Assembly: GCA_965603365.1 (NCBI GenBank)
Contig: CBFDCR010000004.1
Coordinates: 21,260 to 85,259 of the forward strand
Direction of reading: 5' to 3'
Source: an uncultured bacterium
GTDB taxonomy: Bacteria > Acidobacteriota > Aminicenantia > UBA2199
Length of the DNA: 64,000 nucleotides
Shown: positions 5,966 through 19,450 of the stretch, one piece after another
Numbering within the stretch: position 1 is the stretch's first letter
Layout: every line of letters begins with the position of its first letter
Program-made: the position numbers and the translations under genes
The notes under the pieces: model-generated
What the model saw: the letters and a program-made list of their open reading frames with translations, nothing else
Database searches by the model: none
What the model was told of the DNA's origin: nothing

Positions 5966-6006
5966 GGATTTTCGATCCTTCTCTCCTCCATAATCTTTCC
6001 AGTTAC

Positions 6007-6279
6007 TATGGGGGTCATTTGGTCGGGGATGGGGATGATTTCTGCGCTTATGGGAATGGTTTTGTCCGTTATGGGGACGGTTTTGCCGCTTATGGGAATG
6101 GTTTTGCCGGGTATGTGGACCGTTTCGGAGGGTATGGGAATGGTTTTTCCCCTTATGGGGATGATTTTTCCGGCTATGGGGATGGTTTCGCCCGTTATGG
6201 GAATGATTTTGCCCGCTATGTGAATGGTTTTGCCGGGTATGGGAATGGTTTTGCCGCTTATGGGAGTGATTTTTCCGCA
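6007..6279. repeat. 21-bp tandem repeat array A (13 units, consensus ~TATGGGAATGGTTTTGCCGCT)
   Basis: TATGGG motif recurs at 6007, 6028, 6049, 6070, 6091, 6112, 6133, 6154, 6175, 6196, 6217, 6238 and 6259 with an exact 21-bp period; lies in the convergent intergenic region between the B3/4 gene and the 6316-7374 gene. Confidence 0.9.
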
Positions 6280-6315
6280 CTCCCGGGGGCGGGCTGGGGA
6301 AGTGGTGACAGGGGA

Positions 6316-7374
6316 TTAATACACGGTGAGGTTGAATTGGGGGAGGAGTTGTTGGAGGACGTAGAGGCGGTGGTACCAGGCGGCACGGATAAATCGGCAG
6401 GCATCGGATTCCCGGGCAAACGATCGGTCCGCTTCGATGTATTTGAGCCGGGCCACCTCCCAGTGGTATTTGTCATAATTGACACCGATATCGATGCGAC
6501 TGGGGGGAAACAGCTCGCCATCCCGGATGGCCTGCTTCCACCGCTTCACCCGCTCCGCCTTGTCTTCAGATTCAAAGCCGATGATCGCCTTTACCGGGGC
6601 CTCAATATCCGGCCACTGCCGGCGGGTCCTGTCGTCGGCATACTTCCTGGCCTTCTCGGCAAATTGGCCGAAAAAGCGGTGCAGTTCCCTGGCACCCTCC
6701 AGGAAATCGCCGGCATTGTTCCTCGTCACCTTGCCGCCCGACAGCGCCGCCGACTCCGGCTCATACTCCCAGCTCAGGAAAGGGGTATCCGGGTAACTGT
6801 CCACCGAGCCGTGTCCCACCGGCACCAACTCGGCAAACACACCGGCATACTTTTCCAGTTTGGCGGCAATATTCTGCAATACCGTGGTGTTGACCACATT
6901 GTGGGTCGTGATGGTGCGATTCTTCACCTTATTCCAACCGTGGGAGATGCCCACAAAGCCGTAATGGGCAAAGGTGTCGGCAAACACGTGGGCCACCACC
7001 CCGATGAGATGGGGCCAGAGGGGCCGATTCTTTTCAGCCAGGGTATCGGTGAGCATCTGCTGGGCCGGTCGGCTGTTTTTGCGGCAGGCCATACGCTCCA
7101 CGAAACTGCCGTCCGTCGGTTCATTGCCGGGCAGGAAGTGAAAGGGCACCCACACCTTCCACTGGTCCCCGGCCATGGCATTCTGGAAGTCCAGGGGCTT
7201 GTGGCTGGTCATGGTGGGCACGATGGCAAAATCCCTGGAAATCTCGACCTCATCGTCTTCGGTGGCATCATCGACATATTGGGAACAGTAGGCGATGATC
7301 CGGGCCGCCTTATCCTGGATACCGGCAGCCCGGGCCAACGCATACACCCCATAAAAATGCATATCAATCTGCAT
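6316..7374 (-). CDS. hypothetical protein, His/Asp-rich; possibly a metal-dependent hydrolase of the Zn-PLC/P1-nuclease-like fold (weak)
   Basis: Long ORF with host-like GC and a strong GGAGG RBS 6 nt upstream of ATG 7374. H near the N-terminus (MHFYGVYALARAAG), HVFADTFAH (H-x3-D-x3-H) and several other conserved-looking His/Asp/Glu. Fold assignment is from memory only. Confidence 0.55.
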   Translation of the reverse strand: MQIDMHFYGVYALARAAGIQDKAARIIAYCSQYVDDATEDDEVEISRDFAIVPTMTSHKPLDFQNAMAGDQWKVWVPFHFLPGNEPTDGSFVERMACRKNSRPAQQMLTDTLAEKNRPLWPHLIGVVAHVFADTFAHYGFVGISHGWNKVKNRTITTHNVVNTTVLQNIAAKLEKYAGVFAELVPVGHGSVDSYPDTPFLSWEYEPESAALSGGKVTRNNAGDFLEGARELHRFFGQFAEKARKYADDRTRRQWPDIEAPVKAIIGFESEDKAERVKRWKQAIRDGELFPPSRIDIGVNYDKYHWEVARLKYIEADRSFARESDACRFIRAAWYHRLYVLQQLLPQFNLTVY

Positions 7375-7402
7375 ATTGTCCCTCCTCGTTATATTTTTTT
7401 AT

Positions 7403-8953
7403 TCATTTATTTTTTATTTTATTATGCGCTTCGGATAACGCCTCATACCAGATAAGACCTTCGGGGACGGATTTCCGTTCTTTATCAACACCTATAATAT
7501 TTATTCCCTCTTCTAACTCCAATCGCAGTTTATTCCTGTATTCAATCATTAATTCATCGGTATCCAGGCCCTTATGTTCACCAGTATAATGAAAGATAAA
7601 AATTTGTTTGTTCTCATCTTCTATAAGTGATCTAAACATACCGTTAATATGACCATCATCGGTATTAAATCCATACCCAATGACACAAATCACATCAGAT
7701 TTCCTGAATTCATCGTATAATTTAACATATCTTTCTGACATTCTTACGGAAGTCAAAGGTTTGATGCCGCTTTGAGTAAACAAAAAGGGAACCGTTATAT
7801 GATCGCCCTTTGTTAATTTCTCAACCTTTACAATCTTATTTAAATATGGATCATAGAAATCCCTAACAGATCCGTTCAGAAAAAATACATCTCTTTTAGT
7901 AACCTCTTCAATAAAGGTATTGTAATTTGTAGTCCCAATGGTTTTAATATCAAACAGGAATTTATCCTCCAAAACGTCATGATAATAACCTGGTCCCGCT
8001 TTACATCGTTCTATATATTTTTTAGCTATTTCGTAAATATAACGCCTGACAGTATGCAAAAAGATGGCAATTTTACAAAACTTTGCCCAATCAGTCTTGG
8101 GACTGTACAAATATCTCCAGTAGCTATCGATCAAAGATTGATAATCTAATGCCTTTGCATAGAGATCCTCTAAAATCATCTTCCCGAATTGGATGATAAT
8201 GTTTTCATCAGACCCTGTTGGGAAATTAATGAAACTCTCTGACACGATATAATCCAAACCTTCCAAACCCGTACGCCTGTAATCCAGAGAGAAGATACTT
8301 TCAAACTCATCAAAAACATCAATCCCAGGTGGCGTTTTAGCGAAGACTCCATCATTCAATCGGTGAATTAAGGCTTCTCCACAGGAACCGATTAACAATT
8401 CCAATACAGCTTTGACTATTTTCTTGACCTCAACCCTGAATTGTTTACTAATCCCTGAAGTTTCGAGAATATTCAACAATGCAGAAAAATAACTGCTACC
8501 GAAAATTTTATTATAATCACCTAAGCTTGTAGATAAGGCAATTAACTGTGTGTATAATTTTGAACCAAACTTTATATGGGTAATATTTTCAAAGCTTTCC
8601 TTTACTTTGTTCCCTCTCTCACTAAAACTATTCGCATGCCCCTTTACATTTCTATCAAAATCATTTAAATAATTCAAAATAACATCCCGTTTGTTTTCGA
8701 GACTGCCTTTTACTAAAGATTCTAAATGAGATTTCCCGAATGCTGAAACAGGTTTCTTTAAATATCCCAAAGGTAGCCAGTGGGATGCATAAATAGAACC
8801 CTCGGCTACCATTTTTCGTTTTTCATTAAAATCATTTTTATCTCCACTAACATCCATTCTAAATATTTCCAATGCAAATTTTCCACCGGACGGAAGCCCA
8901 TAAGACATCTCCGCCCCTGCGCCGAAAAAAAGGGCCAATGTTGGTCTTTCCAT
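7403..8953 (-). CDS. SIR2-like domain protein (SIR2_2 / 'DSR-like' NADase family), 516 aa
   Basis: N-terminal LALFFGAGAEMSYGLPSGGKFALEIF matches the GAGxS...GLP motif at the start of SIR2_2 domains. Later VICVIGYGFNTDDGHINGMF matches the C-terminal IGYSF.D motif. Low GC (~40%), GAGGAG RBS, 21-bp gap from the upstream membrane-protein gene. Confidence 0.75.
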   Translation of the reverse strand: MERPTLALFFGAGAEMSYGLPSGGKFALEIFRMDVSGDKNDFNEKRKMVAEGSIYASHWLPLGYLKKPVSAFGKSHLESLVKGSLENKRDVILNYLNDFDRNVKGHANSFSERGNKVKESFENITHIKFGSKLYTQLIALSTSLGDYNKIFGSSYFSALLNILETSGISKQFRVEVKKIVKAVLELLIGSCGEALIHRLNDGVFAKTPPGIDVFDEFESIFSLDYRRTGLEGLDYIVSESFINFPTGSDENIIIQFGKMILEDLYAKALDYQSLIDSYWRYLYSPKTDWAKFCKIAIFLHTVRRYIYEIAKKYIERCKAGPGYYHDVLEDKFLFDIKTIGTTNYNTFIEEVTKRDVFFLNGSVRDFYDPYLNKIVKVEKLTKGDHITVPFLFTQSGIKPLTSVRMSERYVKLYDEFRKSDVICVIGYGFNTDDGHINGMFRSLIEDENKQIFIFHYTGEHKGLDTDELMIEYRNKLRLELEEGINIIGVDKERKSVPEGLIWYEALSEAHNKIKNK

Positions 8954-8974
8954 TTTATCCTCCCTCTCCTCTTT

Positions 8975-9700
8975 TTATTTATTATTTGCGTTCTCATTTG
9001 TGTTTTTATTTTTCTCGTTACTTAATTTGTCGGTTCTCCCCTCATCGACCTTATTCTTAAACAACGAGTTAAATATCTCATTTAATTTATCAATGGCCTG
9101 TTTGGAAAACATCCCGGATAAAGCGGCAAATCCCATTACACTGAAAGGCCGTAGTGTTGAGACTTCGGTTTGAATGACGAGAAGACTTCCTTTTATGATC
9201 ATAAAAACAATAAGCGCCAGTACCGAACCGATGGGGAGACGCAGCCAATACCACCAGTACCAACTGGGGTGGAATTTACGATTACCGATAAAATCCGAAA
9301 AAGAAGTAGCTGCATGGATATAGCTGCCCAGGGCACCGGCTATCAACACCAATAGTAACAGACGCAATTCATGGGAAATTTCTAAACCCAACAAAAGCGT
9401 CTTTTTCGACCAATTGTCCTGATCACTTTTCCCTTCTACCGATTGCGTCTCCAGGCTGTCGGTTCTGGCTTCGGCCTGGATATCTGGGGACGCCACTGCC
9501 GGTGGTTTCGACGATGTGGGAGGTTCCACCTTTAAGGGCCAGAATTCAATGATAAAAAGAATCATAATAAAGGGTACGATTATTAAAAAAGCGCCCAGGA
9601 AAAAGCGCTTGCATCCGGTATCCTTTGATTTCAGTGGCGGCTCAGCAGGCTGCTGCTTCTCCAAACCCGAGTTTTTCCCTTCTCTAGTTTCCTCAGTCAT
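8975..9700 (-). CDS. small polytopic membrane protein (3-4 predicted TM helices), first gene of the SIR2 cassette
   Basis: Hydrophobic spans FFLGAFLIIVPFIMILFIIEFW, LRLLLLVLIAGALGSYIHAATSF, WYWLRLPIGSVLALIVFMIIKGSLLV, FSVMGFAALSGMF; charged N-terminus and Asn/Lys-rich C-terminal tail; GAGGAG RBS. Confidence 0.65.
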   Translation of the reverse strand: MTEETREGKNSGLEKQQPAEPPLKSKDTGCKRFFLGAFLIIVPFIMILFIIEFWPLKVEPPTSSKPPAVASPDIQAEARTDSLETQSVEGKSDQDNWSKKTLLLGLEISHELRLLLLVLIAGALGSYIHAATSFSDFIGNRKFHPSWYWWYWLRLPIGSVLALIVFMIIKGSLLVIQTEVSTLRPFSVMGFAALSGMFSKQAIDKLNEIFNSLFKNKVDEGRTDKLSNEKNKNTNENANNK

Positions 9701-9978
9701 ATTTACTCTCCTCTTATATTTTTTTATTCCTTATAAATTTTTTTGCCTTTAATCTCTATCTTTTTGTTAAAGATAAAATAAGTTGGGGAAAAAGTCAATA
9801 GTGGGGTGAGGTTTTTTTATTTTTTTTAGAGTTCCCCTCTCACAGGTTCTGCCATATTTGAGCGTCCGTACTATAAGCGGCAGCAACCTGGCAAAGCTAA
9901 AACACTAATTTAAACTTTAGCTAAGGCACTTAAAGTTTAAGATGCCATAGTAGATGTTAGACCCGTTTATATCGATTA

Positions 9979-10674
9979 TTACTGGATTTCGTAGAATACC
10001 ATCGAGGTATACTGGCCAAAAACCAGGGAAAGAAAGCACTGGTGATTGAGACTCCAGATCAGAGAGATTCCCGGGATTTCATTGGCATAGACCTCTGCTT
10101 TAATATCGTTTAAGACGTCCAGAATTTCCTCTGTGTCCTGGAGCATCTCATGGTAAATCCCTCGAACATCGCCACTCTTCAAGTATCTTCTGACATCCCA
10201 GAATAAGGAAAAGATTAATCCATTATCAATACGAAATTTACCATAATTGAAAGTTTCCAACTCTGCAATCACCTCGGGATTGTAAGGGGTCACTTCGGCA
10301 AGTTGTGTTAAGTCGATATAAGCCAGCCTGGCATTCTCCATATGAACGATAGCCGTATCGATCAGGTTTTGCAATTCGTTAAAATCCGTGCCGTTCAAAT
10401 CACTGATCTCTATTCTGTTGAGAAAATCAATTATAACGGAATGGGATTTTAAAAAATGGCCTGCACCTTCAACCACGTACAGGTTGATGGAAGAACCGGT
10501 ATTATCGGCCTGAATCCCCCCCTGGAAAGCCATGGGCGACCAATTGGCTTTGAGGGAAGCCAAGCCATTCACATGTAACAACAGAACAGCAACAAGCAAC
10601 ACAGAAATTTTTAAGCAAAAGCATTTTTTTATGTCCATTAGATCCTCCATTTTTCTATTTAAATATATAAACAT
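9979..10674 (-). CDS. secreted hypothetical protein, tandem paralog 1
   Basis: Signal peptide (LKISVLLVAVLLLHVNGLA) and ~50% identity to the adjacent 10740-11405 product, with shared blocks FNYGKFR.D.GL.FSLFWDVRRYLK.GDVRG.Y..ML.DTE.ILD and C-terminal QYTSMVFYEI. Confidence 0.6.
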   Translation of the reverse strand: MFIYLNRKMEDLMDIKKCFCLKISVLLVAVLLLHVNGLASLKANWSPMAFQGGIQADNTGSSINLYVVEGAGHFLKSHSVIIDFLNRIEISDLNGTDFNELQNLIDTAIVHMENARLAYIDLTQLAEVTPYNPEVIAELETFNYGKFRIDNGLIFSLFWDVRRYLKSGDVRGIYHEMLQDTEEILDVLNDIKAEVYANEIPGISLIWSLNHQCFLSLVFGQYTSMVFYEIQ

Positions 10675-10739
10675 TGGGTCTTATAATGCGCTTCTAAAAT
10701 ATTTCATTATTTAATATTTCGCAAATAGGGTTCCAGGTT

Positions 10740-11405
10740 TCAGAGATTCTGAACAATCTCGTAGAATACCATAGAGGTATACTGGTTAAAAATGAGGGAG
10801 AGGAAACATCGATGATTCAGATCCCAGATTTGCGATATTTCCGGCATCTGGCAGGCATCCACCGCTGCCTGAAGATTGTACAAAATGTCTAAAATGTCCT
10901 CGGTATCATGGAGCATCTTACGGTATAATCCCCGGACATCGCCGCGCTTCAAGTATCTTCTGACATCCCAGAATAAGGAAAAGTTTAAACCACTATCCCC
11001 ACGGAATTTTCCATAATTGAAAGTAAACAATTCTCTTATTACCTCCTGGTTGTAGGGAGTAATATCGGCTAAGTACGTTAAGTCATCGTAAGCAGCCCTG
11101 GCACCTTCCATATAAAAGATAGCATTACCGATCGACTCCTGGAATTCGCCGTAATCTGGATCATTCTCGTCATACAACTCGATTTTGTGGAGAAAGTAAA
11201 GGATTTCAGAATGGAATTTCAGAAAATACGCTCCCCCCTCGGTAACATAGTAACTAATGGTGTGACCGGGATTCGGTGCCCCGATATCATCAAAAGCGGC
11301 GGGTGACCAATTGGAAACAAGCCGAGCCAGGGCATGCGACTGAAATAACATAAAGACAAAAACAAACAACATAGTCTTAAAAAAGCAACCTCTTTTTATG
11401 TCCAT
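10740..11405 (-). CDS. secreted hypothetical protein, tandem paralog 2
   Basis: Signal peptide MLFVFVFMLFQSHALA; paralogous to 9979-10674. Confidence 0.6.
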   Translation of the reverse strand: MDIKRGCFFKTMLFVFVFMLFQSHALARLVSNWSPAAFDDIGAPNPGHTISYYVTEGGAYFLKFHSEILYFLHKIELYDENDPDYGEFQESIGNAIFYMEGARAAYDDLTYLADITPYNQEVIRELFTFNYGKFRGDSGLNFSLFWDVRRYLKRGDVRGLYRKMLHDTEDILDILYNLQAAVDACQMPEISQIWDLNHRCFLSLIFNQYTSMVFYEIVQNL

Positions 11406-11435
11406 TGGGTCCTCCTATTTTTTAATCCTCTTAAT

Positions 11436-11495
11436 TTATATTATACATAATAAACAAGAATTTTCAAATCCAGATGACAACCCCTTTTTATTCAT
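11436..11495 (-). other. candidate 19-codon small ORF MNKKGLSSGFENSCLLCII with an AGGAG RBS (speculative peptide gene)
   Basis: ATG 8 nt downstream of AGGAG; two Cys in a C-terminal C..C; sits between the fused ABC gene and the secreted paralogs in the rSAM island. Confidence 0.2.
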
Positions 11496-11673
11496 AGCTG
11501 CTACTCCTATTTTTTTTCATGTGTTTCCTCACTAAAGTCACTTCTACCGCTGTGCTGAATTTTATGATCCCTAAACGGTCTAAACTTAAAACTCTTACTT
11601 TATTTAATAGGAGCGAGCATCGTTATTTTCTACGAAATCCAATGTATACATTACGAAATAGAAAAAAAAGGTT

Positions 11674-13707
11674 TCATTCTCCATTGGCGAAGTATTGAAA
11701 ATAAACTTGATTCAGGTTCATTTGTCTCAACTCCGAATCTTTAACATCAAATAGAAGCTGCCCTCCCTTCATGATACCGATTCGGTCGCCGATCTCCGGT
11801 GCCAGCAGCACGTCGTTGCTGAGATACAATATTCCTTTGCCAGATTCCTTCAGTCTACGAATATTCCTGGTGAATTCAATGATAAATTCAACCGGCATAC
11901 CACTGGCAAAATCATCAAAAATATAATATTTACTGTTTTTCATTTTAGCAGCGGCAAACACGGCCTGCCGTTTCTCACTCTCCTGTGCCGCGCCAAAATA
12001 CTTTTTCTTGATGTTGTCGATCCCCAGTAAAATAGAAATCTCATCCGCTTCATTCTTATCGATTCCCGTAAGCCGCCGCATCAGATTCAGAAAATCTCCC
12101 ACTTTAATATTGCCGGGCCATTCAGCGGTTTTACCCACAAAAACAAAGTCACCATTCTGCTGATCATCGGCCATAATCTTGAACTTCTCCTGTATTTGAT
12201 CCCAATTTTTGAACTCCTTCACCGCCCCTGAATAGAGCACATACAATTGATCCCCGACGCCGCCGATTGCCGAAAGCAGTACGTAAGATTCGCCCTTTCT
12301 TACTCTCAAGTTTAGTTTACCGGTGGGAGGCAATTTTTTCATAAAGGTGGAAGAATCGAACCTGACCATTTTGAACAGGAACCTTTTGCAGCACAGGTAG
12401 GACACGATTAAAAGTATAACACAGAGTAATATCGTAAGGGATACCCCTGTCCACGCATAATCCGGCAGCCGACTGCCGGCGTAGAAAATATTCTCATCTC
12501 CCTCTATAAAAGACTCAACGTTTTCTGGATGCTCGGTATAATAACTCTTTTCGATAAAAAACTTGACAAACCTCTTCTTCAGAGCATGTACATAGTGATA
12601 AAAATCAATAAAGTTCTTGTATCCCCGGCTGCTCACCTCGTTGTGCACGGACTGGTAAAAGGTGGCAGGAAAGAAGGAAGCGAGGCGGTGATAAAATCTC
12701 ACATTGTCATTCATCTCCTCGATCATTCCTTTCTCCATCTTATTGATCTCTACAAATTCATTCCGTAAATAACTCTCAATCGCGCCCTTTGCTTCCTCCG
12801 ACATCTTCTCTCCCAATGGGAGGGTACCGTATTTCTTATTGCTTTCTTGCTCAAAACTCATGAGAGTCTTTAATTTTTTCAACTCCAGTTGGTAATTCAA
12901 AGTGATGTTCCCCGCCCGCTTGGAAACCAACTTGCTTATAATCCCGGGCAGCAAAAACACCGAAACAAACCACAATACCATGAGGGTGACCACACCGACG
13001 GCTTTTGATTTCAGGCTGCCGACCGCCGTTCCCAGGATGTAGAAAAAGAGCAGCATCAACAACATGACTGCGGAATATTTCAACAAATAGATGTAGTCGG
13101 GGCCACCCAGAGGTATCCCATTGGCTACCAACAGCACAGAGCCGGCAACTATCAAAAAGAGAAAGAAGAACAACATTATCAGGATTCTGGAAGCCAGTAT
13201 AGAGCAAAAGATCGGTTTGAAACCGGAAAAGCCGGACAAAAATCTCAAATAATCCCGGTAGCGAAATGAGCTGTAGCCAAAATAGAGGGCCATCAAACTC
13301 CCGAACAGCAGGATTATCCCGGAAAAATCTTTAAAGTTATCCTTTTTTTCGGAAAATAAATTCTTGCCTTTAATGGAGTTGTAGATTTTTAAAATTTCGC
13401 CGGAATCCACCTGGGAAGTAATTTCAGCCGCCACACCGGAATTTGTAAAGAATACACTCAAGGGAGAAGGGATGAACAGCAAACGAAACCCATAGCTTCC
13501 GTACTGCCGGTAATGCGTGTATTGTCCCACTTTTACCTTTTCGATTTCCTGAAACTTAACCTTACTATCGGCGATATCTTTGTAGTCTTGAATGCCCTCT
13601 TGCACAAAATAGAGGCACAACAATAAGAGCAACATCAGGGCAACGATCACTTTAGCGGAAAACAGCCGCTTAAACTCTGCCACAAAGAATGCACAAAAAT
13701 CTTTCAT
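11674..13707 (-). CDS. fused ABC-2-type permease / degenerate ABC ATPase-like protein (677 aa)
   Basis: N-terminal half has ~6 hydrophobic helices with the large first extracytoplasmic loop typical of ABC-2 permeases. The C-terminal ~220 aa has an ABC-ATPase-like tail (ILYLSNDVLLAPEIGDRIGIMKGGQL, like the D-loop/H-loop region) but no canonical Walker A GxxGxGKS/T (LLSAIGGVGDQ instead). Confidence 0.55.
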   Translation of the reverse strand: MKDFCAFFVAEFKRLFSAKVIVALMLLLLLCLYFVQEGIQDYKDIADSKVKFQEIEKVKVGQYTHYRQYGSYGFRLLFIPSPLSVFFTNSGVAAEITSQVDSGEILKIYNSIKGKNLFSEKKDNFKDFSGIILLFGSLMALYFGYSSFRYRDYLRFLSGFSGFKPIFCSILASRILIMLFFFLFLIVAGSVLLVANGIPLGGPDYIYLLKYSAVMLLMLLFFYILGTAVGSLKSKAVGVVTLMVLWFVSVFLLPGIISKLVSKRAGNITLNYQLELKKLKTLMSFEQESNKKYGTLPLGEKMSEEAKGAIESYLRNEFVEINKMEKGMIEEMNDNVRFYHRLASFFPATFYQSVHNEVSSRGYKNFIDFYHYVHALKKRFVKFFIEKSYYTEHPENVESFIEGDENIFYAGSRLPDYAWTGVSLTILLCVILLIVSYLCCKRFLFKMVRFDSSTFMKKLPPTGKLNLRVRKGESYVLLSAIGGVGDQLYVLYSGAVKEFKNWDQIQEKFKIMADDQQNGDFVFVGKTAEWPGNIKVGDFLNLMRRLTGIDKNEADEISILLGIDNIKKKYFGAAQESEKRQAVFAAAKMKNSKYYIFDDFASGMPVEFIIEFTRNIRRLKESGKGILYLSNDVLLAPEIGDRIGIMKGGQLLFDVKDSELRQMNLNQVYFQYFANGE

Positions 13708-13781
13708 TGTCTTCTTTCCCCCCCAGTTCTGCCAGATTCCGCAAACAACATACAGATCTTCTTCCTGCTATCTATTTCCAT
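13704..13781 (-). other. candidate 25-codon small ORF (MEIDSRKKICMLFAESGRTGGERRQ) overlapping the transporter start by ATGA (speculative)
   Basis: TGA stop overlaps the ATG of the 11674-13707 gene (CAATGAAAG); weak SD; no convincing precursor-peptide features. Confidence 0.12.
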
Positions 13782-13893
13782 ATTCACTCATATATTTTAC
13801 AAACATTAGAGCCACCGGTCAATAAAAAACTAACTTTTTGCTGTATCCTGGCTTTCTGGCCATAAAAAGTTCATTTGCCGACATTTTACACAT

Positions 13894-15204
13894 TTATGCA
13901 GAGCTAACTGCCCTCAGATTAGACTTCGGTGCCAGTACAGACATAGACAGAGGAGCCCTATGCCTCTCTTCATAGGGATTGTAATGGCACCATGGTTTTC
14001 TACAAAAATGATTTCCGTTTGAGCCATAACAAACCGGCTGGCAAGCATGGCATACATACCGATACTCGCAATCTTTACAAACCTCAATCTGATCCAGGGA
14101 GAGCCTCCAGAACCTTTGAAGCTTTTTCCCCCAGATAATATCTTTTAAAGAGTTTTCCCGAACGTTGCCGCAGGACTCATTTCTTTGCATAATGCAGGGG
14201 AATACATCGCCAGTGCTGGTTATGTCAACCTTTCCCCGCCAGCATGCATTCCCTCTAAACCTCCAGAGAAAAGTACCTTTATTGACCGGGAAAAATACGG
14301 CATCTTTCTCCTTCTGTTCGGAAATAAATTTATCGGGAACCAGTTCACTATCGATGGAACCCCCGGAGGGTCGAAGGATTCCATACTGGGGATCCTCCAT
14401 ACCCAATTCCTTCAGAAAAGCCATTGTTTCATCAACAACATCCTGGTTATGCTTCATCACCAATATACAGTAACGAACATTAACTCCTTTTTTTTCTAAC
14501 TTTCGACAATTCGCCAGCAGCCTGGTATGAGATCCCTTCACCCTGGTTATCTGATCATGAATTTCAGGTCGTTTTGAATAGATGGAAGTGGACACACTGA
14601 TTCCAAATTCTACGATTTGATCCACCCATTCATCCTTGAGAATATTAAGATTCGAAAAGAGTTGAATATCCTTATAATCGCATTTCCTTGCCCTCTCGGC
14701 AATCGAGAACAGATCTTCACCATACAATAGAGGCTCACCACCGATGAATTGCAACGCCTGGCAACCCAGTCCCGCCGCCTCGTATATAACCCTCATCCAC
14801 TCTCCCTTTTTAAGTCGTCTTCCTGCCGTCCCAGGAGGATTATTCTGAGAATAGCAATGCCGACATCTCTGGTTGCAGTCTTCCCGGAGCTCCAACCAGA
14901 TAAAATCAAGTTTATCATGAGATGAGGACAGGGGACGTTTTTCAACTTCTTTAGGGCCAGAATAAAAGTTTCCCAGGTCCTCTGAATCCAACCTATTTAG
15001 ATAAGCCAGGGCATCGGTAAAACCGATATCAGGAATCCGGGACGAAACCCTGGAAATCTTCTCTCCCTTTTCGCAGGCTTCGATCAACTTCACCGCAATG
15101 GGGTCGATAGAATGAACCGATCCATTCATTAGATTATACACTGCACCACCCCTGGCTCCCTTGACCAGGTAGCAATCATCTTTCAAGAAAAAATACACAC
15201 CCAC
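13894..15204 (-). CDS. radical SAM / SPASM-domain peptide-modifying enzyme with an N-terminal RRE(PqqD)-like segment
   Basis: CNQRCRHC (Cx3Cx2C) at ~residue 110. C-terminal Cys-rich auxiliary-cluster region (CWRGK...FPCIMQRNESCGN...CKDCEYRYVCHAC...). N-terminal YLVKGARGGAVYNLMNGSVHSIDPIAVKLIEACEKGEKI resembles RiPP recognition elements. Confidence 0.8.
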   Translation of the reverse strand: MGVYFFLKDDCYLVKGARGGAVYNLMNGSVHSIDPIAVKLIEACEKGEKISRVSSRIPDIGFTDALAYLNRLDSEDLGNFYSGPKEVEKRPLSSSHDKLDFIWLELREDCNQRCRHCYSQNNPPGTAGRRLKKGEWMRVIYEAAGLGCQALQFIGGEPLLYGEDLFSIAERARKCDYKDIQLFSNLNILKDEWVDQIVEFGISVSTSIYSKRPEIHDQITRVKGSHTRLLANCRKLEKKGVNVRYCILVMKHNQDVVDETMAFLKELGMEDPQYGILRPSGGSIDSELVPDKFISEQKEKDAVFFPVNKGTFLWRFRGNACWRGKVDITSTGDVFPCIMQRNESCGNVRENSLKDIIWGKKLQRFWRLSLDQIEVCKDCEYRYVCHACQPVCYGSNGNHFCRKPWCHYNPYEERHRAPLSMSVLAPKSNLRAVSSA

Positions 15205-15243
15205 ATCCTCCTACAGGACGAAAGGGGCTCTTTCACTTTTACG

Positions 15244-15687
15244 TTAACCCAATTGCCGGGCCCCTACCCTTAAATTCATCTGCGCCCCATCTATATGGTC
15301 AAAATGATTTATCCCTACACCAAGCTCTTCTTGAAAAGCCAGAGATTTATGAAAAAAACCGTTTAGCTGAACCGATACCGACCTTAGTTCCCCTGTCAAA
15401 TGTTTGAACTCGTTCTCATTTATATATCCGAGGTATAAAGCACAATTCAAACTGTCCTTGACTTTCTCACATAGTCTGATGGCCTTCTTTAAAAAAATGT
15501 ACTTCCTGGAACTATTTCTCTTCTCAAAAGCTTCGCTAATTTCGATATTGAGGGATATGGCTGCCTTTCGAATATGCCGCCGCAGATGATTACCTTTTAA
15601 AAATCTCTCTTTGGTGGTTATGTTATATATTTTTTTGGCGATATTCAACCCCTCGGCCCACAATATAAGATGCTTTTGTCTCCCCAT
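15244..15687 (-). CDS. four-helix-bundle protein (23S rRNA intervening-sequence protein family, TIGR02436-like)
   Basis: LWAEGLNIAKKIYNITTK...HLRRHIRKAAISLNIEISEAF.KRNSSRKYIFLKKAIRLCEKVKDSL..ALYLGYINENEFKHL matches the family's characteristic helix pattern; the C-terminal ~30 aa extension may be read-through. Confidence 0.75.
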   Translation of the reverse strand: MGRQKHLILWAEGLNIAKKIYNITTKERFLKGNHLRRHIRKAAISLNIEISEAFEKRNSSRKYIFLKKAIRLCEKVKDSLNCALYLGYINENEFKHLTGELRSVSVQLNGFFHKSLAFQEELGVGINHFDHIDGAQMNLRVGARQLG

Positions 15688-16000
15688 TTGATTTATTCTT
15701 GTTCTCTAACACGCTTAAGATAAGCTTCCGCCACTGGTCCTCCTTTTTCTGCATGGTCACTATTAACCACAGCAAGTTTCCGTTTTTTGTGTAAATTATT
15801 CTTTGAATTTATAATACAGCATTTTCCATGCCAAACGTATAATAACTCTGAAACCGTCTATTAACAAGCATTTTTGGGAATTTGAATTGTTCATTTCAAT
15901 TTAATTTTCAATATTTACGTAAATTTTTTTTACACTCCAACTTAGAAAAAGGACGGGAAACTATCTCATAATAAGGAACTCCAGAAAAAACACACCGAAG

Positions 16001-16082
16001 TGTAAAGAACCTTTACACCCCCCCATTATCTTTAAGATTCTATGGCTAAAGGGTATGCCAAAGGAGAAAAGATGTAAAGAAT
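16001..16082. promoter_or_regulatory. two copies of a 19-20-bp partially palindromic element (GTGTAAAGAACCTTTACACC / ATGTAAAGAATTTTTACACC) upstream of tatA
   Basis: GTGTAAAG-aac-CTTTACAC is a perfect 8-bp dyad at 16001-16020. A near-identical copy lies at 16063-16082 (centres ~62 bp apart), about 40 bp upstream of a consensus -35. Confidence 0.5.
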
Positions 16083-16123
16083 TTTTACACCTTCCGCCAA
16101 TATCGCTCGCCCAGATAAAGACT

Positions 16124-16152
16124 TGACATCATTACAGTAAACGGCTAAAATG
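16124..16152 (+). promoter_or_regulatory. sigma70-type promoter TTGACA-17-TAAAAT for tatA
   Basis: TTGACA 16124-16129, 17-nt spacer, TAAAAT 16147-16152, AAGGAG RBS and ATG 16179 downstream. Confidence 0.6.
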
Positions 16153-16178
16153 CAGCTTAAGGATAATAAGGAGAAAAT

Positions 16179-16370
16179 ATGTTTGGAAGCCTTGGCATAT
16201 GGGAAATATTATTGATATTGCTCATCGTGGCGTTGCTGTTTGGCGGAAAAAAACTCCCGGACCTGGGAAGAGGACTGGGAGAAGGAATTAAAAATTTCAA
16301 GAACTCACTGACCAAAGATAAAGATAAACAGGAAGATCAGAGCATTTCAGCGAATGAGAAGAATAATTGA
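16179..16370 (+). CDS. tatA: twin-arginine translocase subunit TatA/E
   Basis: [41 protein letters not shown] is the canonical TatA TM helix plus amphipathic-helix signature. Confidence 0.85.
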
Positions 16371-17421
16371 AGAGCTCATTAGACAGCGAAAGGAAAAACA
16401 GGAAAGACTAAAAAAGACATTAGAGCGACTCGCTGATTTAATCGAGAAAAAAGGACTCCTGAATAGACAAAAGGGTAAAATAAGGCAGGCCCTGTCGACC
16501 TTAAATACCGATCTGAATGAACTCATCACCCTCCAGGACAAAGAGTGGGACGCCTATTCCAACAACCATGCCACCATGGTATTTAAATCTTTACACTGGA
16601 AGATCGAGAAACTGGAAGCGGAATACGCCAATGTCAGAAGCCTGTTGGCGAACTTTATCCAACTGGAAAAATCTTTGCAGAATTTGATCGAATCGATAGA
16701 CAAAAAAACAGATACACAGCCATTGACACGACTCAAAGAGATCCGGAGCCGGTTATCCGTCTATCAATATTCCGACTTTGAACAGCGCTTCAGGGGTAAT
16801 GAAGAGGAAATCAAGGAAAAGCTAAAACAGTATCTGCCGATCTTTTCAAACCACGACTTTATTCTTGACATCGGCTGCGGCAGAGGCGAATTTGTGGAAT
16901 TGCTGACGGAACAGGGTAAAACCGTTGAAGGTATAGATATTTCCGAATCGATGCTGAAGATCGCCGAAGAAAAAGGCCTGCGCTGCCGAAAACATGATGC
17001 CTTAGCCTTCCTGAAAGATCGGGATGCCCAATCCCTGGGGGGAATCTTTTCGGCCCAGGTCATCGAACATTTCCAACCGGAATACCTGAGGGACATCGTC
17101 ATCGAATCTTTCAGAGTGCTAAAAAACGATTCACCGATACTGCTGGAGACCATCAATCCCCTATGCCTGTTTGCTTTGAGCAACATTTACTTCCTGGATA
17201 CCACTCACCAGAAACCCCTTCACCCCGAATACATGAGATATCTACTGGAGAGTTCGGGTTTCTCGCAGGTAGAAGTCCTCTACCCCGGGGCGCTGGCGGA
17301 CGAGCAGTTGGAAGAAATAGCACCGGAGCATCCCCTGGCCAGGGCGTTTAATACAAATGTCGATAAATTAAACCATCTCCTGTTTTCATCCCCCATCTAC
17401 GCCATTAAAGGAGTCAGGTAG
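16354..17421 (+). CDS. class I SAM-dependent methyltransferase with N-terminal coiled-coil region
   Basis: [15 protein letters not shown] (motif I GxGxG) and a downstream acidic motif II; the N-terminal ~150 aa are heptad-like and charged; overlaps the tatA stop by 17 nt. Confidence 0.7.
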
Positions 17422-19242: not shown

Positions 19243-19450
19243 GAAAAAAGTACCGGTACGCGGGAGATGAGTACCGGGACTTAAAGGATGTGTACCGGTA
19301 CTCGAATCATATGTACCGGTACACGAAGGGTGAGTACCGGGACACAAGGGATGGGGAGCGGTACACAGAGGGTGTGTACCGGGACACGAAAAAAAAGTAC
19401 CGGTACTCAAAGGACGAGTACCGGTACTCGGAAGGTGAGTTTCGTGAAGC
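19243..19450. repeat. 21-bp tandem repeat array B (~10 units, consensus ~GAGTACCGGGACACGAAGGGT, with palindromic core GTACCGGTAC)
   Basis: GTACC recurs at 19250, 19271, 19292, 19313, 19334, 19376, 19397 and 19418 at an exact 21-bp period, with degenerate units at 19355 and 19439; lies in the convergent region between lepA and hutI. Confidence 0.85.

Follow-up and report, generated by a model that had tools for sequence, protein, structure and literature searches.

The DNA that we analysed, a stretch of 64,000 nucleotides (the window), contains a two-gene cassette that encodes a 241-aa transmembrane (TM) protein and a 516-aa SIR2-like protein and that looks like a horizontally acquired, strain-specific module in an Aminicenantes/Acidobacteriota-like sediment bacterium. 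SIR2 NADases are among the commonest effectors in bacterial immunity, and to our knowledge every characterised SIR2 system has a TIR, HerA, pAgo, or STAND partner or a fused sensor. With about even confidence, we propose that the cassette is an undescribed, probably chimeric, membrane-coupled SIR2 defence module.

As the initial annotation had described, three minus-strand ORFs lie in this region with gaps of 21 and 28 bp, the latter between the SIR2-like gene and gene 3, and a ribosome-binding site (RBS) of the GAGGAG type precedes each of them (Table 1). Many homologs were found for each of the three, indicating that these are real genes, and the 21-bp spacer between the TM and SIR2-like genes contains no terminator. 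Gene 3 encodes a full-length match to DUF6765 (Pfam PF20551; 293.7 bits, threshold 26.6), a name for which our literature search returned nothing relevant. GC and GC3 were 0.352 and 0.33 for the SIR2-like gene, 0.438 and 0.49 for the TM gene, and 0.583 and 0.75 for the DUF6765 gene; the last GC3 is like that of the host, and the values of both cassette genes are far below it. The gap in GC3 between the TM and SIR2-like genes suggests that they have separate origins. Flanks of ~56% GC had been described on both sides of the low-GC genes, which held on the DUF6765 side but not upstream, where low GC (0.35-0.45) runs on to ~17 kb and is common to the sister strains.

Table 1. Features of the cassette and its insertion site
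Feature	Positions	Strand	Basis
TM gene (gene 1 of the cassette), 241-aa membrane protein	8975..9700	-	ORF call
SIR2-like gene (gene 2 of the cassette), 516-aa SIR2-fold protein	7403..8953	-	ORF call
DUF6765 gene (gene 3), 352 aa, resident, outside the cassette	6316..7374	-	Pfam and sister contigs
TM/SIR2-like spacer, 21 bp, with RBS AAGAGGAGAGGGAGGA	8954..8974	-	sequence itself
Direct repeat, upstream copy AATAAAAAAATATAAGAGGAGAGTAAATATG, RBS and start codon of the TM gene	9698..9728	-	
Direct repeat, downstream copy AATAAAAAAATATAACGAGGAGGGACAATATG, RBS and start codon of the DUF6765 gene	7372..7403	-	
Native region upstream of DUF6765, resident, not cassette	9729..9978	-	aligns with the DUF6765 upstream region of L172 and L176

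Four sister-strain contigs (L172, L174, L175, and L176) lack exactly the TM and SIR2-like genes and carry the DUF6765 gene at the same site. The insert measures 2,325 bp as repeat-to-repeat spacing and is bounded by a ~31-bp direct repeat, the downstream copy of which starts at the final base of the SIR2-like stop codon; in L172 and L176, the empty site has one homologous copy. Because both genes are missing together from the four contigs and one repeat pair surrounds them, they behave as one inserted unit, in agreement with the initial view of the two as a module. The extent first given to that module has to be revised, as the sister contigs place the inserted cassette at ~7375-9728 instead of 6316-9978. 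Most of 9729-9978 is resident DNA, so the greater part of the upstream region 9701-9978 does not belong to the cassette as had been supposed, and gene 3, found at its site in four cassette-free contigs, is not a member. The idea of the DUF6765 gene as a co-opted metallohydrolase partner was thereby ruled out by the empty sites. Since the insertion point lies precisely where the promoter/RBS of DUF6765 meets the start codon, the cassette is predicted to be expressed from the DUF6765 promoter, and the DUF6765 gene downstream is probably co-transcribed with it. A promoter-like TTGACT-17-TATCTT, a consensus match from a promoter scan, lies upstream of the cassette at 9798-9770.

The SIR2 identity of the 516-aa protein came only from fold comparison, by which it is a true SIR2-fold protein. 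It has the sirtuin-type Rossmann fold with a Gly-rich NAD-binding loop (GAGxS-like), and a ~300-aa helical insert (about 31-330) divides the Rossmann core into residues 4-30 and about 333-500. Instead of the uncharacterised C-terminal half of ~250 aa that had been expected, the additional region thus lies in the middle of the protein. The motifs LALFFGAGAEMSYGLPSGG and VICVIGYGFNTDDGHINGMF, first noticed as landmarks of a SIR2_2-type domain, are present. The SIR2 part of that assignment was borne out by the fold, but Pfam SIR2_2 (PF13289) scored 20.5 bits (E 5.5e-4), under its gathering threshold of 24.5 bits, and a precomputed PF13289 match exists for a few relatives (P0104, P0108, P0116, P0117, and P0120). 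Among all PDB sequences, the profile of the 516-aa family matched only ribosomal proteins; these matches were spurious, and we discarded them.

Across 66 representatives of the 516-aa family, the nucleotide-binding loops are invariant. The Asn of the SIR2 TQN/TTN motif, which contacts the nicotinamide ribose, is conserved within GTTNYN, with N343 and Y344 in 66/66 representatives. The general-base His of the SIR2 ‘HG’ motif corresponds to H116 in Sir2Tm and H152 in ThsA. At this position the 516-aa protein has Asn360, its LNG aligning to xHG of canonical SIR2_2 proteins, and Asn is found in 65/66 of the diverse representatives, with His in P0375 only; a catalytic His suggested earlier as a target for point mutation is thus replaced at the canonical position. 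Because the canonical His is missing, NADase activity of the 516-aa protein is uncertain. We considered H435 of the family-specific DDGHIN motif as a substitute catalytic His and downgraded it, as it is kept in only 54/66 representatives. D433, N437, Q394, and K398 are near-invariant.

The 516-aa family comprises 781 clusters at 50% identity, with representatives of 480-560 aa that have no extra domain. Its members are stand-alone cargo of defence islands, often inside type I restriction-modification (R-M) operons: HsdS is encoded immediately upstream in ~18/79 genome loci, and HsdM, HsdR, RhuM, or PD-(D/E)XK genes lie beside these HsdS-linked members. Other copies occur in P4-like islands, near PLD-helicase/HNH, serine recombinase, or MComp1/SMC genes, and on plasmids, one of them directly after an orphan hsdS. 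No TM partner was found in 84 loci of the family and no HerA in 79. As its members stand alone everywhere else, the family seems able to do without a TM partner, and gene 2 belongs with these stand-alone SIR2-fold proteins of ~510 aa, an uncharacterised family whose members move as defence-island cargo. Viral contigs yielded one locus of the 516-aa family and none of the TM family, which argues that these are not phage genes.

AlphaFold predicted three long TM helices and a short helical hairpin for the 241-aa protein (pLDDT 71.6 overall, 85-93 on helices), consistent with the polytopic membrane protein recognised at the outset. TM1 (residues 28-53), a Pro/Ser-rich linker of ~45 residues, and a conserved core (110-214) can be distinguished. 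The family contains at least 189 homologs (best E 2e-66) and 14 invariant residues (G125, S126, H129, T132, S133, G139, W147, R154, G158, G196, F198, S199, Q201, and K205), all kept in the 241-aa protein; conserved polar residues within the helices are S126, H129, T132, S133, and R154. Fusions to IPT/TIG or CBS domains are frequent in the family, and some loci adjoin peptidoglycan hydrolases. PADLOC models did not match the TM protein. Pfam YLATT (YEATS-Like-Associating Three TM; PF20303) shares the three-TM layout and a weak similarity of residues 112-208 to profile positions 3-93, but the score was under threshold (14.9 bits, E 0.025, cut-off 26.7), only 3/44 TM-family members reached E<=0.05, and the cassette has no YEATS-like partner. 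We found nothing relevant on ‘YLATT’ in the literature.

A SIR2_2 gene was present in 25/87 TM-family loci (16/67 after dereplication), and in 15 loci it lay at most 300 bp away on the same strand; 893 kb of control DNA contained no such SIR2_2 ORF. These partners span ThsA-like, ‘GNG’, and pAgo-type SIR2-TPR clades, an nSTAND1-WD40 NTPase often accompanies the pairs, and PD-T4-6-like kinases are also among the TM-linked genes. We detected an nSTAND1::TM fusion as well, and L111 has both the fusion and a separate TM gene. Metagenomes from soil and sediment contained neighbourhoods of TM and SIR2_2 genes, with or without nSTAND1-WD40 (L088, L090, L107, L111, L113, L125, and others), and no description of such neighbourhoods was found in the literature searched. 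Gene 1 belongs to this uncharacterised 3-4-TM family, which in our reading serves several SIR2_2 clades as their ‘constant’ membrane component. About three quarters of the dereplicated TM loci have no SIR2 gene, many of them on short contigs. The contig of the closest TM homolog (P0122, L085) is too short to reveal a partner, and its partial upstream ORF encodes a Lys-rich coiled coil with no recognisable SIR2. An apparent 941-aa TM fusion in L169 was an ORF-calling artefact of high GC.

The cassette resembles these metagenome modules in having the TM core (GALGSYIH...GNR...W.WWY.LRP...GMFSKQA.DKL), at 36-54% identity and with the same 14 invariant residues, and a directly adjoining SIR2-superfamily gene on the same strand, here the SIR2-fold gene 21 bp downstream. 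It differs in the partner: in the metagenome modules this is a SIR2_2 protein of 283-429 aa with the canonical HG motif, or else a fusion of SIR2 and TPR, and an nSTAND1-WD40 NTPase and a PD-T4-6-like kinase are frequent neighbours, whereas the 516-aa partner is His-less and has no NTPase beside it. In the nearest TM homologs, which form two-gene modules between housekeeping genes and without a STAND gene, the SIR2_2 gene comes before the TM gene, the reverse of the cassette order. A close relationship of the 516-aa family to the TM-associated SIR2_2 proteins was rejected on hhalign probabilities of 11% for the full length and 38% for the C-terminal half. HMM searches in both directions found the exact pair of TM and 516-aa families in 0 of ~170 loci; at the family level the pair is thus not syntenic elsewhere, the outcome that the initial annotation had set against its own proposal. 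The expected pairing of TM and SIR2 genes in defence islands survives in a broader form, as a TM family recurrently beside SIR2_2 genes, and not for these exact families.

No described SIR2 system matched the cassette, as had been anticipated. PADLOC SIR2 models reached E~1e-3 at best against the 516-aa protein, NCBIfam SIR2_antiphage (NF042942) gave 17.6 bits (cut-off 500), and the PADLOC and NCBIfam defence HMMs assigned neither cassette protein to any system. Among neighbouring ORFs (5.3-17.4 kb) we detected no TIR, HerA, pAgo, SLOG, or STAND. In Thoeris, ThsA binds its ligand through a SLOG (or Macro/TM) domain, and a ThsB with a TIR domain is encoded next to it; the cassette has neither SLOG nor TIR, and PADLOC ThsA models do not match. 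DSR1/DSR2 are large (~1000 aa) and have SIR2 at the N terminus and the sensor at the C terminus, whereas the cassette protein has 516 aa and no PADLOC Dsr match. SIR2-HerA (Nezha) is set apart by the lack of HerA in the window region and an NF042942 score below cut-off, SPARSA/short pAgo by the lack of an APAZ/pAgo partner, and Avs5 by the lack of a fused STAND NTPase. The split of the SIR2 fold by the helical insert and the change of His to Asn further distinguish the cassette protein from ThsA, DSR1/DSR2, SIR2-HerA/Nezha, and Avs5. Literature searches for SIR2 with transmembrane proteins or with type I R-M embedding returned no description of a TM and 516-family pair. The ~440-aa single protein ‘sole-Sir2’, an NADase in anti-T2/T4 defence, differs by description in that its DSR2-like SIR2 is C-terminal and that of the 516-aa protein is split (bioRxiv 10.1101/2024.12.27.630466). 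[quoted passage not shown] EACC1, however, is a single-TM domain with caspase-type proteins and has no sequence relationship to the TM family, and that paper makes no mention of SIR2.

In the model that we favour, the SIR2-fold protein would bind NAD+ via its conserved GAGxE and TTNY loops, and its ~300-aa helical insert would sense an infection cue. The protein might then consume NAD+ or transfer its ADP-ribose by chemistry that we propose to be non-canonical, given the Asn in place of the general-base His. The TM protein, which is probably oligomeric, would anchor this activity in the inner membrane or turn it into membrane damage, and the outcome would be growth arrest or abortive infection. 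Only tentatively do we advance a wider, joint proposal, that the TM family is the membrane component of unrecognised SIR2 immune modules and also that the His-less family has non-canonical chemistry. Such modules would swap both their SIR2 partner (ThsA-like, GNG-type, pAgo-type-TPR, or the His-less 516-aa family) and their sensor (nSTAND1-WD40, TPR, or helical insert), and the His-less chemistry could be, for example, ADP-ribosyl transfer or production of a signal that gates the membrane protein. If true, the recurrence of one TM family next to four or more unrelated SIR2 clades would point to membrane-coupled SIR2 immunity, and a compact mobile SIR2-fold family of type I R-M operons and plasmids with Asn for the universal catalytic His would question the view that all defence-island SIR2 proteins are NAD+ hydrolases.

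It is very unlikely, in our assessment, that the cassette serves a purpose other than phage defence, such as membrane-linked NAD+/ADP-ribose signalling, stress, addiction (toxin-antitoxin-like), or inter-bacterial conflict. The failure of defence HMMs to match the cassette proteins would fit such a purpose, as would the IPT/TIG and CBS fusions and peptidoglycan hydrolase neighbours of the TM family and the original description of nSTAND1 systems as general ‘conflict/apoptosis’ systems (PMC8195603), but ThsA-like and pAgo-type SIR2 domains, as well as PD-T4-6-like kinases, are among the TM-linked partners. Members of the 516-aa family, moreover, lie inside type I R-M operons, within P4-like islands, and, next to hsdS, on plasmids, a classic anti-phage signature. 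We also think it improbable that the SIR2-like protein is inactive as an NADase and acts as a nucleotide-binding sensor or regulator, with the membrane protein as the effector (a pore or depolariser). Its family usually lacks a TM partner and must then have its own output, other TM partners are HG-containing and expected to be active, and the four near-invariant residues named above could support catalysis. These points weigh against the loss of the general base in 65/66 representatives with nucleotide-binding loops invariant, the lack of an obvious substitute base (H435), the conserved polar residues in the TM-family helices, and the frequency of TM effectors in signalling defence systems (CBASS, Pycsar, and type II Thoeris).

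Two independent single-gene elements may instead lie side by side by chance, with a SIR2-like protein that works alone and a TM gene that is an orphan or separate, which we judge somewhat unlikely. The insertion site is a variable recombination hotspot with three alleles and other indels, GC3 is not alike in the TM and SIR2-like genes, no conserved partner turned up in the 84 loci of the 516-aa family, and stand-alone SIR2 defence proteins such as ‘sole-Sir2’ exist (bioRxiv 10.1101/2024.12.27.630466). Yet the strong and specific preference of the TM family for SIR2 neighbours (16/67 dereplicated loci against 0 in 893 kb) makes it unlikely that the TM gene met one more SIR2 by chance, and the joint absence in four sister contigs, the single repeat pair enclosing both genes, and the terminator-free 21-bp spacer argue for the membrane-coupled module. 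For that module, the clean insertion and the matching empty sites define an exact minimal construct of about 2.4 kb.

The three minus-strand ORFs that the initial annotation had grouped as a low-GC cassette are present exactly where it placed them, with gaps of 21 bp (TM/SIR2-like) and 28 bp (SIR2-like/DUF6765), and the peptide motifs that it quoted are found in the 516-aa protein. A GAGGAG-type ribosome-binding site lies ahead of all three genes. GC content is 0.438 for the TM gene, 0.352 for the SIR2-like gene, and 0.583 for the third gene, with GC3 values of 0.49, 0.33, and 0.75, respectively. The accompanying description of flanks at about 56% GC was half right, since upstream of the cassette the low-GC tract runs on to about 17 kb. 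The third gene encodes a full-length DUF6765 protein (293.7 bits).

Features of the window and of one comparison locus
Feature	Coordinates	Strand	Remarks
TM gene, 241 aa	8975-9700	minus	ORF call
SIR2-like gene, 516 aa	7403-8953	minus	ORF call
DUF6765 gene, 352 aa	6316-7374	minus	ORF call
Direct repeat, two copies	9728-9698 and 7403-7372	minus	2,325 bp apart
Promoter-like TTGACT-17-TATCTT	9798-9770		resident region upstream of TM gene; consensus match only
Tandem array 1, intergenic	6029-6278		21-bp period, about 12 copies of ATGGGAATGGTTTTGCCGCTT
Tandem array 2, intergenic	19249-19440		21-bp period, about 9 copies of GATGAGTACCGGTACACAAAG
Two paralogous secreted proteins, 221/231 aa	9979-11405
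Permease-ATPase fusion, 677 aa	11674-13707
Second indel	13841-15238		radical-SAM/SPASM gene at 13894-15204
Four-helix-bundle 23S-IVP protein	15244-15687
Fusion protein in TM-family locus L111, 652 aa	9878-11836 of L111		nSTAND1 NTPase (residues 10-371) and C-terminal TM-family domain (378-651)

DUF6765 relatives at 90% identity or more were found on other long contigs. In sister-strain contigs L172 and L176 (89-95% nucleotide identity to the window), the gene order is LepA, methyltransferase, TatA, IVP protein, 677-aa, 221-aa, and 219-aa proteins, DUF6765, B3_4, and GlmS, with only about 270 bp where the window has the TM and SIR2-like genes. This empty site has one A-rich/RBS/ATG segment, which the window has twice, as the direct repeat. 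Contigs L174 and L175 represent the closest strain: LepA is 100% identical, and 7.6 kb on the right of the site match at 99.55%. They are without window positions 7356-9784. Their DUF6765 is divergent (92%) and broken into ORFs of 96 and 212 aa; an extra GAF-HATPase kinase gene and two small genes follow it, so that these contigs are a mosaic relative to window positions 5990-7355 (92% across DUF6765) and 9785-17379 (99.55%). The cassette is thus a discrete insertion, with the TM and SIR2-like genes gained or lost together. Because L172/L176, L174/L175, and the window differ here, the insertion site has three alleles and is a hotspot of recombination between strains. DUF6765, proposed as a possible cassette member, is instead resident DNA that is kept in sister contigs without the cassette, and the same comparison assigns the supposed shared upstream region to resident DNA as well. 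A promoter-like element in this resident region would drive TM, SIR2-like, and DUF6765 genes. From LepA, which shows 82-84% identity to named MAGs, the host is judged to be Aminicenantes/Acidobacteriota-like.

The 516-aa protein scored below the Pfam SIR2_2 threshold (20.5 versus 24.5 bits), generic PADLOC SIR2 models reached only E~1e-3, NCBIfam SIR2_antiphage gave 17.6 bits against a cutoff of 500, and the family profile had no match among PDB sequences. Its Rossmann fold is split: residues 4-30 supply strand 1 with the GAGAE loop, residues at about 333-500 supply the remaining core, and some 300 residues, all of them helical, are inserted between the two. What had been taken for an uncharacterized C-terminal half is, by this split fold, a central insert. 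Canonical SIR2_2 proteins recovered in our searches have the motif series GAG...TTNYD...xHG...GYSxxD, and the 516-aa family has GAGAE...GTTNYN...LNG...GYGFNxDDGHING, in which the LNG strand aligns with xHG. We examined conservation in 66 mutually divergent family representatives from a 1.84-billion-protein library. The catalytic-His position is Asn in 65 of these and His in one (P0375), which reads YLHGS where the others read LNGS, confirming the positional equivalence of LNG and xHG; P0375 may represent either the ancestral state or a reversion. N343, Y344, G361, Q394, and G426 are invariant (66/66), D433 is present in 65/66, and H435 in only 54/66. In sirtuins, the His of the HG motif serves as general base, and the NADase activities of ThsA and DSR2 require it. 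Since the binding motifs are kept and the general-base His is replaced, NAD+ binding by the 516-aa protein is likely, and plain NAD+ hydrolysis is not assured.

Homologs of the 516-aa protein make up a compact family: clustering at 90% identity gives at least 888 clusters, and clustering at 50% identity, with E ≤ 1e-3, gives 781. Nearly all members measure 480-560 aa, and they occur in Bacillota, Gammaproteobacteria, Bacteroidota, Verrucomicrobiota, and others. Across 79 reference-genome and 5 metagenome loci, their neighbors are heterogeneous yet typical of defense regions. HsdS is encoded directly upstream in about 18 loci, accompanied by HsdM, HsdR, YgjP, RhuM, or a PD-(D/E)XK nuclease; the family gene is therefore embedded in type I R-M operons, where it repeatedly occupies the slot between hsdS and hsdR (L016, L048, L051, L052, L054, L056, L058, L059, L068, L073, L078, and other loci), often joined by a RhuM or PD-(D/E)XK gene. 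Enterobacterial copies adjoin P4-like DUF3987 and YagK genes, and the closest homologs of the window protein adjoin either PLD-helicase/NUDIX/HNH genes or a serine recombinase with MComp1/SMC genes. Eleven plasmids carry a family gene annotated just as hypothetical protein; in the 11-kb Lactococcus plasmid pAH1-5 (L177), it directly follows an orphan hsdS. With these neighborhood and plasmid contexts, the 516-aa family behaves as a single-gene, mobile, defense-island element. No ORF resembling the window TM protein or DUF6765 was detected in the 84 loci (phmmer, E ≤ 10; family HMM, E ≤ 1).

In the 241-aa protein, TM1 (residues 28-53) is followed by a Pro/Ser-rich, disordered linker; the conserved core (110-214) consists of two long helices and a short hairpin (185-214) that is too short for a full membrane span. 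No PADLOC model matched the protein, and the Pfam YLATT match was weak (14.9 versus 26.7 bits), with E ≤ 0.05 in 3 of 44 relatives. At least 189 homologs were found, chiefly in soil and sediment metagenomes, often with C-terminal IPT/TIG or CBS domains. IPT/TIG domains are usually outside the cell and CBS domains inside, so these fusions give conflicting hints on TM topology. TIG-fused members without a SIR2 neighbor (L105, L116, L142, L147, and L159; L114, L126, and L139) often adjoin peptidoglycan hydrolases (Peptidase_M15_4, or Amidase_2 with PG_binding_1), which suggests a different, envelope-related context for this subfamily.

We observed a SIR2_2 ORF in 25 of 87 TM-family loci, in 15 of them within 300 bp and on the same strand, and the proportion is 12/26 when only loci flanked by at least 8 kb are counted. 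As a control, the same three SIR2 models found 0 ORFs in 893 kb of defense-rich 516-aa-family loci. Dereplicated at 90% identity, the TM loci form 67 clusters, of which 16 have a SIR2_2 neighbor and 9 an nSTAND1 NTPase. The SIR2 partners fall in different clades. ThsA-like short SIR2_2 proteins (PADLOC ThsA1, E 6e-19) occur in loci that also encode an nSTAND1-WD40 protein (~1150-1300 aa) and, frequently, a PD-T4-6-like kinase. A ~300-aa "GNG" SIR2_2 lies immediately upstream of the TM gene in L092-L094 and L113, whose TM proteins are the closest to that of the window and whose two-gene modules sit between housekeeping genes. A pAgo-type SIR2-TPR fusion lies downstream in L125 and L129 (PADLOC Aga_SIR2, E 2.5e-59). 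In L111, a TM-family domain is fused to an nSTAND1 NTPase in place of the WD40 repeats of its relatives; the neighbors of this fusion are a short SIR2_2 gene and another gene of the TM family. None of the 87 loci contains a 516-aa-family member. Ser/Thr kinase-TPR ORFs of ~800 aa lie upstream of the TM gene in L090, L127, L138, L148, and L154; their products match PADLOC PD-T4-6 (E down to 6e-90) and recur beside TM/nSTAND1-WD40/SIR2_2 modules.

The core of the original proposal, a TM-SIR2 module outside described SIR2 systems, survives in modified form, supported by co-insertion and the TM-SIR2 association and tempered by the singleton status of the exact pair. We hold with moderate confidence that the cassette is a functionally coupled, membrane-associated SIR2 defense module. 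Co-insertion and the 21-bp spacing support coupling, and the TM family specifically and repeatedly adjoins SIR2 proteins of several clades, which makes it unlikely that it met one more SIR2 by chance. Against coupling, the 516-aa family is self-sufficient elsewhere, the exact pair was found once, and the two genes differ in GC3. This difference suggests that the cassette is a chimera of recent origin, with a SIR2 gene like those of low-GC Firmicutes and a TM gene from a family common in Acidobacteriota. We consider it less likely that the two genes are simply independent neighbors. In a coupled module, the SIR2-like protein would bind NAD+ and might sense through its helical insert, with the TM protein as a putative oligomeric anchor or pore. 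We give smaller weight to a SIR2-like protein acting only as sensor with the TM protein as effector, and likewise to a non-defense role for the cassette.

Neither SIR2-based immunity nor the use of TM effectors is new. Three elements, none of which turned up in PADLOC, NCBIfam, Pfam, or the searched literature, appear undescribed: the association of the TM family with SIR2 proteins; the 516-aa family, which lacks the His, bears an insert, and lies within type I R-M operons; and the combination of both families in the window. Although the exact pair occurs in one strain only among the loci compared, the family-level patterns keep the finding above the ordinary.

The low-GC tract upstream of the cassette encodes the two secreted paralogs, the permease-ATPase fusion, a radical-SAM/SPASM enzyme, and the four-helix-bundle protein, which together resemble a RiPP-like or export cluster of low GC content. 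The radical-SAM/SPASM maturase is absent in L172 and present in L174 and L175. The two 21-bp-period arrays bracket the variable region, with copy numbers unlike those of L172.
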